A stretch of 64,000 nucleotides of DNA from Octopus vulgaris. Its lineage: Eukaryota. Positions 1,309-47,253 of the stretch are shown here, piece by piece. Below the pieces are notes generated by a model. The model had not been told where the DNA came from. It saw nothing but the letters and a program-made list of their open reading frames with translations, and did not search any database. The position numbers and the translations under genes are program-made. Numbering within the stretch: the stretch's first letter is position 1; the number at the start of each line of letters is the position of its first letter. The stretch lies in assembly GCA_951406725.2 (NCBI GenBank), contig OX597828.1, positions 71,486,001 to 71,550,000 on the forward strand. Reading direction: 5' to 3'.

Positions 1309-1619
1309 TGCTGCTGAATATCTCTCGTTGTGAGATTTAAGAATAGTAATTTTCTAAAAACTTTCAGCTAAAAACAGTAGGTTTTGACTTCTACACCAAG
1401 ACAATGTTGTAGGACCATGACTTCCATGTGAAATGCAGCAGAATTTGGAAAGATAGGGATGATGTTTGTGTGTGTTGTTTGAATGTTTACATTATATATT
1501 ATGTCAATCTGTTTGCTGAAAAATGCAGTAATTATCTTAGTTTATTGTTAATGAGGTGATAGAAAGTAGTTCACTTATTTTGCTGTAAATATAATTTATA
1601 GGGTAAAAAGCATTGGGGC

Positions 1620-1927
1620 TGCTTCCATGTAATAATCACTGGTATTGGTGCCATGTAAAGAGCTCTGGTACTGGTACCTTGTAAAGAGCTCTGGTACTGG
1701 TGCCATATAAAGAGCACTGATGCCACGTAGAAAGCACTGGTGTTGGTGCCACACAAAAAGCACTGTACCATGTAAAATGCTCTGATGATGGTGTCATGTA
1801 AAAAGCACCCATTACACTCTAAAGTATTTGGCATTAGGAAGGGCATCCAGCTGTAGAAATATTACCAACCCCTGTTGAGCCATCCAACCCATGCTGGCAT
1901 GGAAAACGGATGTTAAATGATGATGAT
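1620..1927 (+). mobile_element. RTE-LINE 3'-end repeat with expanded internal tandem units
   Basis: Repeated ggtgccatgtaaaagcac-like units, then ttaggaagggcatccagctgtagaaa...gttaaatgatgatgat tail. Confidence 0.7.
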
Positions 1928-2364
1928 ATGATTTATATGGCGATATCTAGTTTTCATTGTCGAATCCCTATGAGCACAGTCCATGGTGGACAGTGCACGT
2001 ACAGGTGTAGGTGTTCAGGGAGCATTTAGATGCTCAACCACAAAGGATCATCAAGGAACACATCATTGCATTCAGAAGTAGACTGGATTATGATAACCTG
2101 ATAAACTATGGGGAGCTCTATATATAACAAGTAGCAGACATACATCTATTTGTACACACAGTCTTTTCACTGTGTGTTTGTGTGCGTGTGTGTGTTCAGA
2201 GTCTATGCAGAGCTACAGCAGCAGTAAACAGTGACGTAACCGTTTTACAGCTCAGCTACAAATGATGCCATCACTATTTACGAGGTGGGCTGCTGCCGAT
2301 GTAAACGTTGGTGGCTGTGGCTGCAACAGGTGACATCTCTAATGGTATTTGTTTAATTTTCCAG

Positions 2365-2666
2365 GAAGAGAACAACTGTGAACTGTACCCCGGTGTTAAC
2401 AATGTAGGTAATACCTACTCCCTAAACTCGTTCAATGGTAACGTCCAGGCAGAGAAACAAGCAGCAGAGAAAGACATTGTGGAAACAGCGGCAGTGAACC
2501 CTATGGAGTTCAAGCTGAGGCAGTCGGAATTTATGGAAGCCCAGAAGCAACAGGCTGAATTTATTGAAGCCCAGAAGCAACAGGCTGAGTTTATGGAAGC
2601 TCAAAAGCAACAGGCTGAGTTTATGGAAGCCCAGAAGCAACAGGCTGAGAAATTAGCCGAGGAAAG
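2365..2666 (+). CDS. Putative upstream coding exon of the BTB/POZ gene, with 4x EF(M/I)EAQKQQA repeat
   Basis: Branch-like CTAAT at 2339-2343, acceptor ttttccag|2365, donor AAG|GTTAGT at 2667. The frame is open, has an in-frame ATG at 2503, and ends in phase 2, matching the exon at 6626 (KLAEE-R-QQRQNENK). Confidence 0.65.
2527..2649 (+). repeat. 30-bp coding minisatellite, about 4 copies
   Basis: Units of gaRtttatKgaagcYcaRaagcaacaggct. Confidence 0.9.
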
Positions 2667-3828
2667 GTTAGTAGTCTTGCTATTTAAGTGTGAGATTTGT
2701 TGTTAGTTCAATATTTGATCTAAATTTTGAAGAATTCTCAGTTTTATGCTAAGACTTAGGAAGACTCTTAAAAGGTTTTTCAGAGTTTTCCAAATGTGGT
2801 TCATTGTTTTAGTGGTTTAGTTTTGATTTATTTTCTTGCATTTACTTTTCCTGTCACCAACCCTTAACTTACTCTTTGTCCAGAAAGGGTTTCCTTTTTT
2901 ATTTTTTTTTATTTTGGATTCGAAAAGAATTGAAATGTGTAGAGCTAGCAGATGATTTGCTGACAAAAAATATCAACAGATGTCACCTGTTGCAGCCACA
3001 GCCACTAATGTTTACATCAGCAGCAGCCCACCTCGTAAATAGTGATGGCATCATTTGTAGCTGAGCTGTAAAACGGTTACGTCACTGTTTACTGCTGCTG
3101 TAGCTCTGCATAGACTCTGAACACACACATGCACAAACACACAGTGAAAAGACTGTGTGTACAAATAGATGTAAGTCTGCTACTGTTATATATAGAGCTC
3201 CCCATAGCTTATCAGGTGATCATAATCCAGTCTACTTCTGAATGCAATAATGTGTTCCTTGATGATCCTTTGTGGTTGAGCATCTAAATGCTCCCTGAAC
3301 ACCTACACCTGAGTTCCATACAATGATAGTGGTGAAACATGTGTAGGAATTTTATTATAAACTTGAGTTTATCCTTAGTCCTCCTATATATATATATAAG
3401 ACTAAGTGGAGCAAGATCACACATGAAAACGAAAGGTGTTGCTGAAGAGGTCACAGATGTGTGACGAAAGATTTCCGGACAATGGATATGAGTTAAAATA
3501 ATAAAATAAGAACAGTAATAAACTATTGGAGGAAAAATATATAGTGCGTATGTTTATTAGGCAAAAAAAAAAAATGACCATCCCAAAATACAACAAGATA
3601 TATATTAGTGTTACACCACTGATATATTTAAGCAATGTGTTTGTGAATTGTTGATCAGTTGGATGTGATACTGATGAAAGAGCAATACTTCCTGAAATAT
3701 GCATGTACACTCATTGCCTATTTTCTCTGTCTTTGATTGCATTGTTTATACAGACATATCTGTGGCATGAAATGCTGTAAATGTCAGTGCTGGCTCTGAA
3801 CTCTATAGAAAATCCGTAGAGGTAAACT

Positions 3829-3859
<31 letters not shown>

Positions 3860-4287
3860 TTATATATTTGTGTGTGTGTATGTTTTGAATGTGAAACAAT
3901 GTGTATATGTTAATAATATACACACTGTCTGACAGCTGACAGAATGTTCATTGATGGATGTAAAAACACTGCAGTTGGTGACAGTTAAAAGAATGGGACA
4001 ATTGAAATATGGTGTCAGTTTATTAGTCGGATTTGCTGTTGTTTTGTTTTAACCTGGTGTTGGCTGTCAGCTCTGGTCAGCCTGACCAAACATCACACAC
4101 GATCCAACTGTGACCATTATTCAATGTGTCCTTTTGTTATTTTTTTACTCGTTTCAGTTGTTGGGCTGTGGCCATGCTGTGGCACTGCCTTGAAGAGTTT
4201 ATTCAAACGAATTAACTTCTAGTGCTTATTTCTGTGTCTTTTACTTACTTGTGAAGGTGCATGGCTTCTACTGACGAGTGAAAGTAC

Positions 4288-4620
4288 AGGCGCAGGTGGT
4301 TAGAGCATCGGGCTCACAATCATGAGGTTGTGAGTTCGATTCCTGGACTGGGATGTGTGTGTTGTGTTCTTGAGCAAGACACTTTACTTCATGTTGCTCC
4401 AGTTCACTCAGCTGTAGAAATGAGTTGTGACATCACTGGTGCCAAGCTGTATCGGCCCCTTTTCCTTTCCCTTGGATAACATCGGTGGTGTGGAGAGTGG
4501 GGTGCTGGTAGGCATGGGCGACTGCTGGTCTTCCATCAACAACCTTGCCTGGACTTGTATTTTGGATGGGAACTTTCTAGGAGCAATTCCCTGGTCATTC
4601 AAGACCAAAGGGAGTCTTTA
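4288..4620 (+). mobile_element. tRNA-derived SINE (family shared with 54106-54440)
   Basis: A-box-like GTGGTTAGAG and B-box GAGTTCGATTCC; body nearly colinear with 54106-54440. Confidence 0.8.
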
Positions 4621-4898
4621 CTCTTTTTACTTGTTCCAATGATCTATTTTGCTACACTGGTAGATTACGAGGATGTAAGCAAACCAACAGAGGTTGTCAA
4701 GTAGTTGTGGGAGACAAACACATGCACAGAAAGTGAGTGTAAGCAGAGTAAGAGAGAGAGTGAGTGAGAGAAAGAGTGAGAGAGAGAGTTTAAGGCTTAA
4801 AGATGACAATGTATATAAAGGAACCTCTTTTTGACAGAAGTAATGCAATAATTTGGTTCCCAGACTAAAAGACAGGATCCTGAAATTCTACTTCAAGA

Positions 4899-5282
4899 AC
4901 ACTGCAAACGTTTATGGATTGTGAATGTTCCAAGTTGTTGTTAAAGGGGAGGAGAAAATCCCTTGTGGTGTTCGTTTTGGCCCTTTTCGTGTGAGATTAT
5001 GACATTCTCCCTGAATCGGATGCCAAACCATTGCAGGGTTCAAAGCCAGAGATTTTGAGGGGAGGGTGTGATGTCAGTTACTTATAGGCCATGGAAACTG
5101 GGTAACTGGCCTGTATGGGTCTGGGGTCTCAAGAAAAAAAGGAATATGCTTTATAGAATGAAGCTGAGACGATGCAAGGTTGAACTCAGCACATAAAAAG
5201 GGCCGAAATGAACACCACAAGGAATTTTCTCCTCCACTTTAACAACTTGGAACATTTGCAATCCCTAAACATTTGCAGTGTG
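4899..5282. repeat. Inverted repeat, arms ~4899-4996 and ~5186-5282
   Basis: acactgcaaacgttta...ggcccttt versus aaagggcc...taaacatttgcagtgt; moderately diverged. Confidence 0.8.
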
Positions 5283-6625
5283 CATGAAGTACAATTTCCG
5301 GGTACTTGATTGGTACTTTATTTTATTGACCCTGTGAGGATGAAAGGGAAAGTTAATTTTCAGGGGATTTGAACTTGGAATATAAAGAGTTGGAAGAATT
5401 CTATTAAGGATTTTGTCTGATGTGTTAACAATCTTGCCGTCTTTCCACCTTGTAGAGCAGTGCTTCTCAGCCACGGTTCCCAGAAACACATGTGGCCCTC
5501 AAGCATCCTTCCAGTGGACCCCAACGGTCTTCCCTCAATAAATATAATAAATTCTTCTTTAATTGACTTGTGTTTTACACTTTTTGGTACAGCCCCTTAA
5601 ACGAATCGAGGTTTTTGATCTGGCCTGGATATTAAATTGGTTGATAGTGTGCTGGGTGCATTTTTTTAAGTGGTACCACCACTAGTGAGGTCACCTTATG
5701 ATTGACAGGAAGAACTGGAGAGGTGGGAGAGGTGACTTTAGGTAAGGTGTTGAGAGAAGATAAAGTAAAGGGGCAGGAGGAAAGAGATTTACTGTTGTGA
5801 GAGGCTGGTGGTGGTGGTGGAGAGAGAGTAGCAAGAAGTGACAGTACTGGAGATGGGGAGTTATGGAAAGGAGAGGAGGAAAGAGAAAGGGTAGCAAGGG
5901 TCGAAAAACAGGGGCAGAGCGGTAAAGGTGATGAAGTGGGCTGAGTAGGAGGGGCCTCATCCAGTGCCATTCCACATTGTATAGGTAGATGAATATGGAT
6001 GGGTGGAGTGGATGGAGGGTTGCATGAGAGATGGAGAAGCTATGGGGAGAGGCTCAATGAAAAAAAAGAAGAGGTAGAGTGTTGTAGAGGTGGTCTAGAG
6101 AGAGGAGAGGGTATTGAGGTGGTGGCAGTGTGAGAAGAGAAAACGAGGAGTAAGGGGGTGGATGAATGCAGTGTGAGACAGATGGAGTGTCCTTAGCCAC
6201 CCTCATTACCCGGCTTAACATTCTCTCTTCCATGTCTACCCAAGACTGGATGTTTCTCTCGTACAATTGTATGTCTTCAATTGTCTCAGTTCCTTGTCAT
6301 CTCTTTTACGAGGCTCAGCTTCTTGAGATTGGTTCTCATCATTTCACCTCACCTCCTCCTAGCTTCTCCCCTTCCAAAAGCACCATCTACTTCACGCATT
6401 CAGCACTTCTTATGCCACTGTTGTCATCCATATGCACCACACGTCCATACCAACGCCAGTCTCCTCTCTCGCCAGCCACACTGCATTCCTCTTTCTTCAC
6501 AGTTTCCCTTCCAAGGCCTTTGGAATGTGTTGTTGAAGGATACAAATATTTTGCATCCGGCCTTTTATGCCTGCTTTTTTTTCTTTCTTTTTGTAAACGT
6601 GTTTGTTTTTTGTTCTTTTTTGTAG

Positions 6626-6767
6626 GCAACAAAGACAGAATGAAAATAAAGTATATAAATATATGGTTTTGAATCACGAGAAGAAAATTCTGGAAACTCT
6701 TCGAACGCTTTGGAAAGGAAACCAGTTCTGTGATGCAATGTTGCAAAATGAATGCGTGTCCATTCCA
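6626..6767 (+). CDS. BTB/POZ gene exon (N-terminal part of BTB domain)
   Basis: Acceptor ttttttgtag|6626 and donor CCA|GTAAGT at 6768. Encodes YKYMVLNHEKKILETLRTLWKGNQFCDAMLQNECVSIP, matching the BTB H..L..L......CD..L pattern; in-frame ATG at 6663. Confidence 0.9.
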
Positions 6768-6800
6768 GTAAGTTTCAGCCATTTATTGTAAGATAACCAG

Positions 6801-7250
6801 TCATCACCATCATCATCATCATCATCATCGTTTAACATCTGTTTTTCATACTGGCATGGGTTGGACGGTTCGACTGGGGCCTGGGAAGCCAGGAGGCTGC
6901 ACCAGGCTCTAGTCTGATCGGGCAGTGTTTCTACCGCTGGATGCCCTTCCTAATGCCAACCACTCCGAGAGTGTAGTGGGTGCCAGAGAGGGCTAGCATT
7001 GACCATGATCGGATCGTGCTTTTTACGTGCCACCAGCATGAGGATCACAACTACAATTTCCCATTGATTGTGATTTGATTTGATTTTGATGTACTTGACT
7101 CAATAGGTCTCCTCAAGCACGGCATGTCGCCCTACGATCCAAGGTACTTTTTGAGTGGGATGGTTATGTGACACTGGGGTAGGTTACAGCTGTGAACTCA
7201 CTTTATTTGCTGGGTCTTCTCAGTCACAGCATACCTCCAGAGGTCTCAGT
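6801..7250 (-). mobile_element. 5'-truncated RTE LINE (ORF end, 3' UTR and (GAT)n tail)
   Basis: Reverse complement matches ~35170-35660, including the last ORF codons. Confidence 0.8.
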
Positions 7251-10200: not shown

Positions 10201-10302
10201 GCAGATTATGAAGTTAATAAGAGTTTTTTATCAGCAACAAATTGAACATTATCCCTTAGGGCTGTTTCAATTATACACAGTGAATTAATTAAATATTAAG
10301 TT

Positions 10303-10472
10303 CGTATTTCTGAGCATAATATCTTCAGAGGGAAAAAATATGTCCTTAGATGTTTTATTTGTTTGTTCATGGTTTCATTATAGCAGACTTACTATAAAGA
10401 ATCCATGAAGAAACATATAAAACATCTACGGATACATTTTTTCCCTCTGAAGATATTATGCTCAGAAATATG
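10303..10472. repeat. Foldback hairpin with ~80-bp arms and decayed CTGAAGA..GAAA motif
   Basis: Arms 10303-10383 and 10392-10472 are reverse complements. Confidence 0.85.
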
Positions 10473-10705
10473 ATTAATTGAAAACAATTTGAGTAAGTAT
10501 TACATCTGACAGAATAACAAGAGTGCCAGAAGGTTAAAGACAAAATCCATTCCTACCTGCACCGGGTTGGTTATCGTTGACGACAATTTAGTCAGCTGGT
10601 AACGAAAAGTTGTCTCCCTTACATCCAGTTTTTTTCTACTCATTCTATTACTACCAGGGGCCCAGCATGTATAAAAATTCAATAGACAACATATTCTCAA
10701 TATAT

Positions 10706-12533: not shown

Positions 12534-12568
12534 TATATATATAAAATTGTGTGTGTGTATAAATGTTT

Positions 12569-12671
12569 TGAACACTTTGGAAAGAGAACCAGTTCTGTGA
12601 TGTAATGTTGCAAAATGACTTTGTCTCTATTCTGGTCAATTTTAGCTGTTGTTTATTGTAAGATAACCAGT
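12569..12671 (+). pseudogene. Decayed duplicate of the BTB exon 3' half and its donor region
   Basis: Aligns to ~6702-6801 (ctttggaaag..aaccagttctgtgatg.aatgttgcaaaatga..ttattgtaagataaccagt); the GTAAGT donor is degraded. Confidence 0.85.
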
Positions 12672-13074: not shown

Positions 13075-13149
13075 CACCTAAACACATATTATCTCCCCTA
13101 TTCTTTTAGTAATATGATTGTTTTTCCTTCATAATTTTCAATGTTATAT

Positions 13150-15134: not shown

Positions 15135-16208
15135 GTGCATAAAATCCTCCTCATTGCGTGCTGTCCAAAAATCTTAGACACGTACGACTACATTATGAAA
15201 GACACCAACGTCCAAGTGTGTTTCCCCCGCAAAGTATCTGCTGACGCTCTCAGAGCCTTTGTTGATTACCTTTATAACGGGTCATTAAACTTAAGTAAAT
15301 CTATCCTCGACAGCATGGAGTACCTCTCAGGGATGCTGGGTTTGGATGATATTCGTCAACTGTGCAATCAATTTCGATTAGACTTATTTAATGATTCCAA
15401 TAATGTGCCTGACAAGACCATTGTAACTGTTAGCCACTCTCAGAATACTTCAGGGCTCCATCTTTCTTTGTCGAATCCCCCAGCCACACCACCGCCACCT
15501 ATAATTCGCCTCTCATCACAAACGACTTTGTCTGCAATGTCCACGACCAATATACAGATGCCATCTTCTTCTCCACACTACCAAGATAATCGGAGAGTAA
15601 GCTACTCACAGAAATCTTCAGAAAACAGATTTAATATTTTACCAGAACATTGTACAGATTCTGAGGTTTTAAATGTGAACTCAATAAAGTTAGAACCAGA
15701 AGTTGATTTGACGGTTGATGATTGCACGGAGGTGAAGCAGGAAATCGCAACGTACCAAAACAGCGAAGATTGTCAATTTGGTTCTTGGTCACAGATCGAT
15801 TCTCAGAGTGACGATTCGTTATCACATCGTAAAAAGAATGACTCTGTTAATTTTGACATCCAAACCACAGTTGATCTGAGTGTAACGCCTTTAAAATCTT
15901 TCACAAGTCATTCACAAAAGACTGCTAGCCATGATGACCCCGACTTGCAAAGTGTCATAACTATATCCCCTTCAAATTCTCCACTTCACTCCCCGACTTC
16001 TGTCGATTCTTCTCCTGATGTCCAGACTTTTGAAGTAGATTCAGAAACACCAAACCTAAAGACACATCTGAACCCTTACCCTGTCGGCTTAGTTATGGCT
16101 AACACACACAATCTCACATTAACAGAAAATAATAGGAAAAAAAGAAGCACTTTTGAAGATTTTGATGTAGATTTTGAGTGCAAAAAGTCTAAAATGGCAC
16201 TTCAGTGA
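15135..16208 (+). CDS. BTB/POZ gene terminal exon (rest of BTB domain plus disordered Ser/Asp-rich tail)
   Basis: Acceptor atttcag|GTG is phase 0 with the donor at 6767. VHKILLIACCP..FVDYLYNGSL..YLSGMLGLDDIRQLC is a BTB signature; stop codons TGA TAA TGA follow. Confidence 0.92.
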   Translation: MHKILLIACCPKILDTYDYIMKDTNVQVCFPRKVSADALRAFVDYLYNGSLNLSKSILDSMEYLSGMLGLDDIRQLCNQFRLDLFNDSNNVPDKTIVTVSHSQNTSGLHLSLSNPPATPPPPIIRLSSQTTLSAMSTTNIQMPSSSPHYQDNRRVSYSQKSSENRFNILPEHCTDSEVLNVNSIKLEPEVDLTVDDCTEVKQEIATYQNSEDCQFGSWSQIDSQSDDSLSHRKKNDSVNFDIQTTVDLSVTPLKSFTSHSQKTASHDDPDLQSVITISPSNSPLHSPTSVDSSPDVQTFEVDSETPNLKTHLNPYPVGLVMANTHNLTLTENNRKKRSTFEDFDVDFECKKSKMALQ

Positions 16209-30082: not shown

Positions 30083-30290
30083 CTTCTAAGTGATTCTGCT
30101 TTTCTCGTTTGTTGAATTTCTTAACATTCAGATCCTGTTTTAAAACTGATGTTTTCATTTAATTAGTTTTATTTTAATTACAGCTGTTTAATTAGTATGT
30201 TAACCTTGTCTAATAACGTACAATGGGAACAGCAGTGTATTATGGAAGCAAGAGCAGTAGGGCCTGTGGTTACTTAACGAGTGGTTCTGT
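30083..30290. repeat. Inverted copy of 22911-23118
   Basis: Reverse complement of 22911-23118; lies between a SINE fragment and a LINE fragment. Confidence 0.9.
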
Positions 30291-45840: not shown

Positions 45841-46048
45841 AAATGGAAAGATGAATTTTCTTGTTACAGATTATTCAAAAGTTTAACCAATACCTGGGTA
45901 GCAAAAATCACAGCAGAAAAAAACACAGTTGGAGATAAGACCATTTGGTGTTGCAACCGTGCGTTGGTGCGGATAATTGAAGTTTAATATAATTAGTGAA
46001 TGGAAGAAATGGAGTTGAACGAAGATTGTACAGAATACCTTTTATTAC

Positions 46049-46131
46049 ATTCTACACATGTTTCGAAGGCCACAATTTTCCAAATTCTGATTAAATAAGG
46101 ATACCATATTGCAGCTTTCTCTTCAGGAAAA
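46049..46131 (-). ncRNA. Hammerhead ribozyme motif with intact core
   Basis: Minus strand TTC-CTGAAGA-GAAAGCTGCAAT...ATTGTGGCCTTC-GAAA-CATGT-GTA-GAA. Confidence 0.65.
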
Positions 46132-46423
46132 AGCAGGAATTACGTTGTCAGAACAAAACAAAACAGAGGCGCAGCAAAGCAATTCGAACGAGGACGCTCC
46201 TTAAGAGCCCATGGTTAAACTGTTTATCAATGTACGTTGAAATCGGGGGGTTGGTGGGGGCCGACAAAAGGTCCGTTGGAATAATTACAGGTCAGGCCGC
46301 GGTCAGAAGGAGGTGTAATCTTTGTAACTCTGAGCTTTTCCACATATTGTTCGCCAGAGGCCGTTTGGTAAACGGGCTTTTACAGACGGCTTTTTGATGT
46401 CCCCATTGGCGGCGTCATACTTA

Positions 46424-46764
46424 TCTTACATATAAATGACACCTAAGACAATTAACACCTTGTTACCCTATTAAAATGAAAATAATTTTTGGAAATAATT
46501 TTTGAAAAAACTTTTTTAAAAATCTATGAATAACTCTTGCAAGGGGAAATTACTCCCATTAGGCGATTGGTCAGTTTTTTTTTTTGGAAGCAAATGCCGG
46601 AATTATATATACCCTTATGATTCTTTGACGATGTTAATTTTTAGACAAGCAGGCCTAGACGAACACACGAACACAGAATTTTTTCAGCCGCCTGACAGGT
46701 TTTTTCAGCAGTGCTCATTATCTAGCGCCTCTCGCCAACATACGGCTGCGCACACATAGGCTAG
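46424..46764 (+). mobile_element. Probable non-autonomous Helitron in the spacer
   Basis: A|TCTTACATATAAAT start; imperfect GCGC..GCC/GGC.GCGC hairpin; CTAG|T end. Confidence 0.5.
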
Positions 46765-47079
46765 TATACACATACATGCTTTTAGGTAGGTTTTGTCTCG
46801 CCCCTAAAATACACCCTGTTTTCTTAAAATATTCAGAACATTAGTTTTGGTCACACAGAACATCTCCACACCCCTTGTTCCCATTAATTCCTCACCTACT
46901 AGATTTGACCGCGGCCTGACCTGTAATTATTCCAACGGACCTTTTGTCGGCCCCCACCAACCCCCCGATTTCAACGTACATTGATAAACAGTTTAACCAT
47001 GGGCTCTTAAGGAGCGTCCTCGTTCGAATTGCTTTGCTGCGCCTCTGTTTTGTTTTGTTCTGTCAACGTAATTCCTGCT

Positions 47080-47162
47080 TTTTCCTGAAGAGAAAGCTGC
47101 AATATGGTATCCTTATTTAATCAGAATTTGGAAAATTGTGGCCTTTGAAACATGTGTAGAAT
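47080..47162 (+). ncRNA. Hammerhead ribozyme motif (right arm; G-U closing pair in stem II)
   Basis: TTC-CTGAAGA-GAAAGCTGCAAT...ATTGTGGCCTTT-GAAA-CATGT-GTA-GAA. Confidence 0.6.
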
Positions 47163-47219
47163 GTAATAAAAGGAATTCTGTACAATCTTCGTTCAACTCC
47201 ATTTCTTCCATTCACTAAT

Positions 47220-47253
<34 letters not shown>

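Follow-up and report, generated by a model that had tools for sequence, protein, structure and literature searches.

A near-perfect inverted repeat around the hub exon of an octopus BTB gene with alternative front modules, probably a local inverted duplication

One exon of a BTB gene in the Octopus vulgaris genome lies between two nearly identical segments of DNA in opposite orientation, and this arrangement raises the question of how the two segments came to be there and whether they act on the exon that they enclose. The locus is part of a stretch of 64,000 nt (the window; G000:C15:71486001-71550000 within a 2.8-Gb genome), for which a sequence-only reading had proposed that pairing of the two segments could switch the gene between a long, a short and a circular isoform. 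The evidence points to a plainer answer: the inverted repeat is probably a local template-switch copy placed beside a constitutive hub exon, whose splicing tolerates it, and it likely has no regulatory role. The repeat and the shared part of the gene comprise the following features.

2002 to 2338, no strand assigned: left arm, a derived copy of 2978-3311 inserted in inverted orientation; 96.7% identical, no target-site duplication (TSD).
2339 to 2364, + strand: branch-like CTAAT, pyrimidine tract and AG acceptor, read from the sequence; 22 annotated isoforms imply the acceptor, as does contig 1 of RNA run X1.
2365 to 2666, + strand: hub exon, 302 nt, phase 0 in and phase 2 out; first common exon, single-copy.
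2848 to 3005, no strand assigned: remnant of an old dispersed repeat, 74% over 158 columns to locus L135 (G000:C4), entering the right arm by 28 nt.
2978 to 3311, no strand assigned: right arm, ancestral intron sequence and the template; old-repeat homology passes both edges.
6626 to 6767, + strand: second common exon, with the start of the BTB domain; it includes ATG 6663.
15135 to 16208, + strand: last coding exon, with the remaining BTB (PF00651) and a disordered tail.

Alignment bore out the near-perfect inverted repeat that had been noticed around the exon: the arms, 337 nt on the left and 334 nt on the right, are 96.7% identical, the 11 positions at which they differ representing 8 substitutions and 2 indel events, and the longest perfect run is 110 nt. 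The left arm ends where it had been placed, directly before the CTAAT at 2339-2343 and 26 nt ahead of the exon, and the right arm begins 311 nt past the donor; the CTAAT itself, judged by its letters, may serve as the branch point. The arms are not a chance match, since the cross-intron inverted match scores 554 bits at exon 2365-2666, against 19-101 bits at the 10 other exons of the gene. A long reverse-complementary match lies near the splice sites in both introns, which is the geometry of exons that give rise to circRNA. The predicted fold of the RNA from 1960 to 3350 is a single continuous stem of -806 kcal/mol, a value that stands without a shuffle control at such length; the pre-mRNA would be able to form a long duplex, and the earlier suggestion that the arms are a plausible ADAR substrate is in keeping with this fold. 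Also in line with the earlier reading, no TSD is visible at the outer edges of the 2002-3311 unit. Gapped similarity extends about 15 nt beyond the inner arm edge, a weak hint of microhomology, and none is visible at the outer edge.

The differences between the arms bear on the possibility that the left arm is an artefact of assembly or sequencing, that is, a fold-back chimera. No contig covers the left-arm bin 2073-2263 in any of four RNA-like runs, as an artefact would have it, but this is expected of an intron; an artefactual copy should moreover be identical to its source, whereas the arms differ at 11 positions, three of which are CpG-type decays on one arm, so that a chimera is extremely improbable.

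A genome search with the left arm returned 42 matches, namely the two arms and 40 short diverged ones (40 of 69 candidates were scored, and the counts are lower bounds). The 40 non-local matches are 71-98% identical over 40-120 nt, all lie within the outer ~200 nt of the arm, and none is full length; on its sequence, this outer part is an old, diverged dispersed repeat. The 639-nt loop found itself and one 75% partial match elsewhere. Since there is no full-length third copy of the arm and the loop is single-copy, the 2002-3311 unit is not a dispersed element. The old repeat also gives the direction of copying. At 22 of the 28 fetched loci its homology runs beyond the outer edge of the right arm by 20 nt or more, reaching up to ~108 nt, and at none of the 28 does it do so at the left arm; one locus (L135, on C4) has homology across the right arm's inner edge. 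Because old-repeat homology crosses both edges of the right arm and not the outer edge of the left, the right arm is ancestral and the left arm its inserted inverted copy, and sequence comparison thus shows a single-copy set of arms and loop with copying from right to left. This is the pattern of a locally templated insertion, with a single-copy donor nearby and one copy embedded in continuous older sequence. At 2.4% substitution between the arms the duplication looks young, unless gene conversion keeps them alike; gene conversion could make an old repeat appear young.

The same searches weigh on two other origins. In the first, the exon would have been captured or surrounded by a long-TIR or foldback element of non-autonomous type, and a real element of near-equal geometry is indeed present in the window: 45987-47224 is non-autonomous and multicopy, with 319-nt TIRs (99%), a 600-nt core and TA-rich ends flanking it, and ~40 of its copies, 86-99% identical, were scored from 2021 candidates. 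At 2002-3311, however, dispersed copies are absent, there is no TSD, the right arm runs on into the old repeats that flank it, and the exon peptide is conserved, with homologues in Argonauta and cuttlefish proteins. The genome-wide check of copy number therefore agrees with the earlier view that the arms are not a TIR element; this origin was rejected on the single-copy arms and loop and the absent TSD, and is extremely unlikely. Secondly, inverted duplicates at both ends are a known signature of staggered-break inversions, so the arms might be the staggered breakpoints of a small inversion, or might mediate the flipping of the 639-nt segment in some alleles, a recombination that the 110 nt of perfect identity could support. 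Yet the hub exon shares its strand with all other exons, a flipped allele would strip it from all isoforms, and the right arm retains its ancestral neighbours on both sides. On this last continuity an inversion breakpoint was rejected, and it too is very unlikely.

How often such pairs arise was estimated in 80 tiles of 10 kb at round coordinates, with limits of at least 180 nt per arm, at least 95% identity and a loop of up to 2 kb. Inverted pairs within these limits were present in 6 of the 80 tiles, and an exon of 302 nt would lie within a loop at 0.33% of positions, figures from which many exons per genome are expected to be bracketed by chance; looser limits gave 13 tiles and 1.3% of positions. 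Two of the six positive tiles, L061 and L082, were searched genome-wide: the pair in L061 is a multicopy element, whereas in L082 positions 1-191 of the arm were covered only by the two local arms among 150 matches listed of 176. Within the window, comparable inverted pairs lie at 13148/14036, 22911/30290 and 45987/47224. The one at 22911-23118/30083-30290 is a second single-copy inverted duplication, 208 nt long and 99% identical with copies ~7 kb apart, and its 2 genome-wide matches are both local. In addition, the 105 nt at 12567-12671 repeat, in direct orientation and in decayed form (81%), the 3' part of exon 6626-6767 together with its donor region. The pairs at L082 and 22911/30290 and this exon copy suggest that local duplication is recurrent in the region.

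Several of these neighbours have particulars of their own. The exon copy at 12567-12671 has lost the GT donor and its reading frame is broken. The copy at 30083-30290 abuts a truncated SINE-like repeat, and between it and its partner lies a 469-aa minus-strand ORF (27182-25776), by eye a Penelope-type reverse transcriptase with a GIY-YIG-like tail. The pair 13148-13328/13855-14036 is formed by two inverted copies of a common SINE-like family, 99.5% identical to each other, with other copies in the window at 94% or less; a ~75-nt direct duplication (13076 and 13447) lies beside it, and the pair may have arisen by local duplication or gene conversion. Spacerless imperfect palindromes of MITE-like appearance are found at 1029-1308 and 10295-10478 (87% and 86%). 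Outside the window, ~30 kb upstream and in an intron of the hub-exon gene, an inverted pair whose 1.3-kb arms (98.6%) are separated by a 299-nt loop occupies G000:C15 ~71455319-71458229 (L031/L032), and the part of it that was searched is multicopy at 97-99%; at L041:1917-4926 a ~360-nt unit recurs in a complex nested array, both inverted and direct, its copies being 98-100% identical.

What the repeat encloses is best seen from the gene as a whole. The hub-exon peptide matches LOC115220336 (O. vulgaris, O. sinensis and Argonauta) and LOC106879774 (O. bimaculoides), and the annotated proteins, mapped to the genome, revealed six alternative 5' modules, all on the + strand and upstream of the window, each placed by a mapped annotated protein.

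G000:C15 ~71430165, + strand: FLYWCH module.
G000:C15 ~71433692, + strand: FLYWCH module.
G000:C15 ~71437639, + strand: FLYWCH module.
G000:C15 ~71439264, + strand: CENP-B N-terminal HTH module.
G000:C15 ~71452117, + strand: DUF3504 module.
G000:C15 ~71473515, + strand: DUF3504 module.

Between the three FLYWCH modules or the CENP-B module and the hub exon come a pair of short exons, near 71441390 and 71442209, that these four modules share; each of the six modules then joins 2365-2666, 6626-6767 and the last coding exon, 15135-16208. The protein does not begin at the hub exon, which is the first exon that all isoforms share and follows six alternative modules lying outside the window, and in the annotated proteins the choice of isoform lies upstream, at the first exon. 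Within the hub exon, a 30-nt unit repeated four times encodes a linker rich in Q, E and A; the copy number of this repeat (2530-2649) varies, two O. bimaculoides models being 10 aa shorter and the Argonauta model having more units. In the tail encoded by 15135-16208, sequence matches were named PXDLS-like, SUMO-like and basic motifs, which we take to be candidates for function.

In the Pfam scan FLYWCH scored above the cut-off and CENP-B_N at about the cut-off, while DUF3504 reached E values of ~1e-5 to 1e-6 and 25-29 bits in this genome, slightly short of the cut-off of 29.7, and exceeded it with 43 bits in the Argonauta model. FLYWCH, CENP-B and similar front domains are typical of transposons. 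DUF3504, according to the accessible text of PMC3212892, derives from Crypton transposons; the six front modules are likely transposon-derived, and are predicted to bind DNA. The 27 listed proteins consist of 22 with a front part and the BTB, three DUF3504 modules that read into the intron (records P0007, P0009 and P0013), and two C-terminal fragments. The DUF3504 exons are open past their donors (L031:6084-7547 and L033:7491-8819, 488 and 443 aa from stop to stop), and stand-alone DUF3504 proteins lacking the BTB may exist. A scan for further front modules in the 120 kb upstream, covering the 131 ORFs on the plus strand that reach 75 aa, gave only the six known ones; a weak zinc-finger match at L039:6408-6644 is presumably a retroelement remnant, and two other weak front-domain matches upstream fell below the cut-off.

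The layout extends beyond this gene. One cuttlefish protein combines a DUF3504-like front with a homologous linker and the same BTB, and a search of cluster representatives gave 60 matches, 24 of which, having long N-terminal extensions, were scanned; 15 of the 24 carry a front domain before the BTB, be it THAP, Tc5/CENP-B, FLYWCH, ZSWIM3/FAR1-like, CG-1, STPR or DUF3504, and one adds a DDE domain. Among the 10 nearest relatives, 8 clusters are labelled Octopus, Argonauta or cuttlefish and 2 are without a name. No description of the octopus arrangement of alternative front modules on a BTB was found in the literature covered, which leaves out most subscription papers.

The hub exon is bounded by AG and GT, and its reading frame carries on into 6626-6767, so the 302-nt exon with acceptor and donor that had been recognised from its letters is a real one, its downstream junction being present in RNA as described below. 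Each of the three upstream donors that were mapped ends in phase 0, against phase 2 at the end of the hub exon; computed skipping of the hub exon gives a frameshift and a stop after 5 codons, ~125 nt ahead of the last junction. Because of this phase mismatch and early stop, skipping would yield no clean short BTB protein, and a premature stop at ~125 nt before the last junction makes a transcript a likely target of nonsense-mediated decay. The hypothetical 302-nt circle, whose length is not a multiple of 3, contains four in-frame ATGs that yield only 28-68 aa across the back-splice junction. The hub exon is kept in 22 of 22 annotated full-length isoforms (front module plus BTB) under four octopod species labels, in a set that was found with the hub exon as query and therefore leans towards inclusion. 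Of the 27 listed proteins, which include 15 of the 16 members of cluster 3, not one starts at ATG 6663 (~392 aa), and no short-isoform cluster appears among the 4 matches of a BTB-region search covering 370-1180 aa. The short isoform that was proposed to begin at this ATG therefore has no counterpart among the listed proteins, and the proposed switch between long, short and circular forms finds no support, the exon being present in all 22 isoforms and skipping leading to a stop.

RNA evidence comes from assembled contigs of 4 of the 24 listed runs, from four studies, over the region 1500-7200; the runs are putatively RNA-like, their library type is not on record, and assembled contigs drop rare forms. 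The 2666-6626 junction, which the sequence-only reading had named among those to look for, is present with GT..AG ends in all four RNA-like runs, and in three of the four it is crossed by single unbranched contigs of 1392-1613 nt, which argues against a major competing skip or circle form. With the enclosed exon spliced in normally, the repeat is likely without a regulatory role. Upstream, contig 1 of run X1 reaches ~200 nt beyond the hub exon, and its single mismatch over 2359-2364 would fit the end of the second shared upstream exon; RNA support for the upstream joins is indirect and comes from this one run of four. Back-splice or skip joints were absent among 15 joints listed of 57, in contigs that drop rare forms, and no A-to-G change over the arms, which are barely covered, appeared among 40 variant rows listed of 52. 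Two signals were set aside: the depth over 2837-3409 is not right-arm expression, as its joints with 21-23-nt sides are short matches from repeat contigs, and a T>C at 2409 in two of the four runs, a third-position change at about half depth, reads as an allele and not as editing.

The published data on this species are those of PMC9699675, which, in the part available, describes O. vulgaris circRNAs as low in level, with 296 retained, and places octopus editing mostly in introns and 3'UTRs; the id of the hub-exon gene is absent from the files of that study that were searched, a set excluding its isoform-annotation archive S1-S4. A literature search for cephalopod circular RNA with inverted repeats and RNA editing, with most subscription papers outside its coverage, found nothing relevant.

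A functional reading would see in the repeat a selected RNA-structure rheostat: pairing would loop the hub exon out, giving a circle or a frameshifted skip, and ADAR would melt the stem and restore inclusion, so that all six predicted DNA-binding isoforms are tuned together, while selection or gene conversion keeps the arms alike. The stem of -806 kcal/mol predicted for the region closes next to the branch-like site, but removing the right arm leaves the pairing predicted for the branch A and the donor as it was. The stem sits on the one exon common to all front modules, and the frameshift makes skipping a natural off switch, yet no skip or back-splice joint is among the 15 joints listed of 57, and unbranched contigs cross the junction in three of four runs. 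Reverse-complementary flanks are known to promote circles and ADAR to antagonise them (PMC5042038, as far as its text was available), and the mostly intronic and 3'UTR editing of octopus (PMC9699675, in part) suits such a role; against this, the copied DNA is ordinary intron sequence of old-repeat origin, and equivalent duplications nearby enclose no exon of this gene. Such a rheostat is rather unlikely. A bolder form, distinctly less probable, holds that the six captured modules make up, via the hub exon, a panel of transcription factors whose output ADAR sets through a 330-bp duplex acquired in Octopus.

The preferred reading remains that of a local inverted duplication. A template switch during DNA replication or repair would have placed an inverted copy of 334 nt from the downstream intron in the upstream one, and this copy would have landed beside the acceptor of a constitutive exon, where splicing tolerates the insertion and the change would be largely neutral. 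The pre-mRNA would transiently form a ~330-bp duplex, likely edited by ADAR, and a trace of the 302-nt circle might leak as a by-product; the hub exon would stay the obligatory link from six modules to one BTB, with skipping leading to a premature stop. Four observations count against a mere scar: the arms, one 26 nt before the exon and the other 311 nt after it, sharing a perfect run of 110 nt, have a geometry that promotes back-splicing; among the 11 exons of the gene, the repeat lies at the most consequential one; the stem ends directly beside the branch-like site; and the microhomology at the junction is weak.

Known systems help to place the repeat. Exons that circularise between reverse-complementary intronic flanks include those of mouse Sry and those between inverted Alu pairs (PMC5042038, accessible part). 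Like these, the octopus exon has long, near-perfect inverted flanks near its splice sites, which are a likely ADAR substrate; unlike in Alu-flanked exons, its arms arose by local duplication of single-copy sequence and not from two members of a repeat family, and all the isoforms and junction-spanning contigs examined include the exon. Locally templated inverted insertions, in turn, arise from template switching (PMC7954356, in the portion available). The octopus repeat resembles them in its single-copy donor within 1 kb, its inverted copy, the absence of a TSD and a donor set in continuous older sequence, and departs from them in its weak junction microhomology. Short-range templated insertions are generally shorter than the 337 nt found here.

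For the gene, a close comparison is with Drosophila lola, in which, as in mod(mdg4), a constant BTB is joined to variable modules; in mod(mdg4), the variable exons lie on both strands and require trans-splicing. The available text of PMC5666082 gives more than 30 Mod(mdg4) isoforms differing in their C-terminal domain. The octopus gene likewise joins, in its annotated isoforms, a constant BTB to mutually exclusive modules of DNA-binding type, FLYWCH among them. Unlike in both fly genes, its variable modules are 5' and N-terminal, with the BTB in common 3' exons, and they come from three unrelated domain types, the choice being likely made by alternative promoters; unlike in mod(mdg4), all six are on the + strand. 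Among vertebrates, KCTD1 isoform b and KIAA1958 are Crypton-derived DUF3504 genes (PMC3212892, in part). As in KCTD1b, a single-exon DUF3504 in octopus is N-terminal to a BTB, and, as in KIAA1958, there are two alternative DUF3504 exons in one gene; unlike in KCTD1b, two DUF3504, three FLYWCH and one CENP-B HTH module share one BTB, for which the Pfam scan matched PF00651 only. The octopus DUF3504-BTB is likely a capture independent of KCTD1, orthology with which is not indicated.

On present evidence the inverted repeat alone is ordinary, a mutational scar. It nonetheless sets up a natural experiment: ADAR activity is very high in this animal and its circRNAs are few, and one can ask here if a flanking duplex close to perfect gives rise to a circle. 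If the duplex did act as a rheostat, it would link cephalopod RNA editing to transcription-factor dosage. The host gene carries more weight: domains of the kinds found in three unrelated groups of transposons serve as interchangeable first exons for a single BTB scaffold, a layout opposite to that of mod(mdg4) and lola, in a coleoid family in which 15 of the 24 scanned relatives carry front ends of this sort. Should the proteins bind DNA and pair via the BTB, one locus would give many combinations of regulators.
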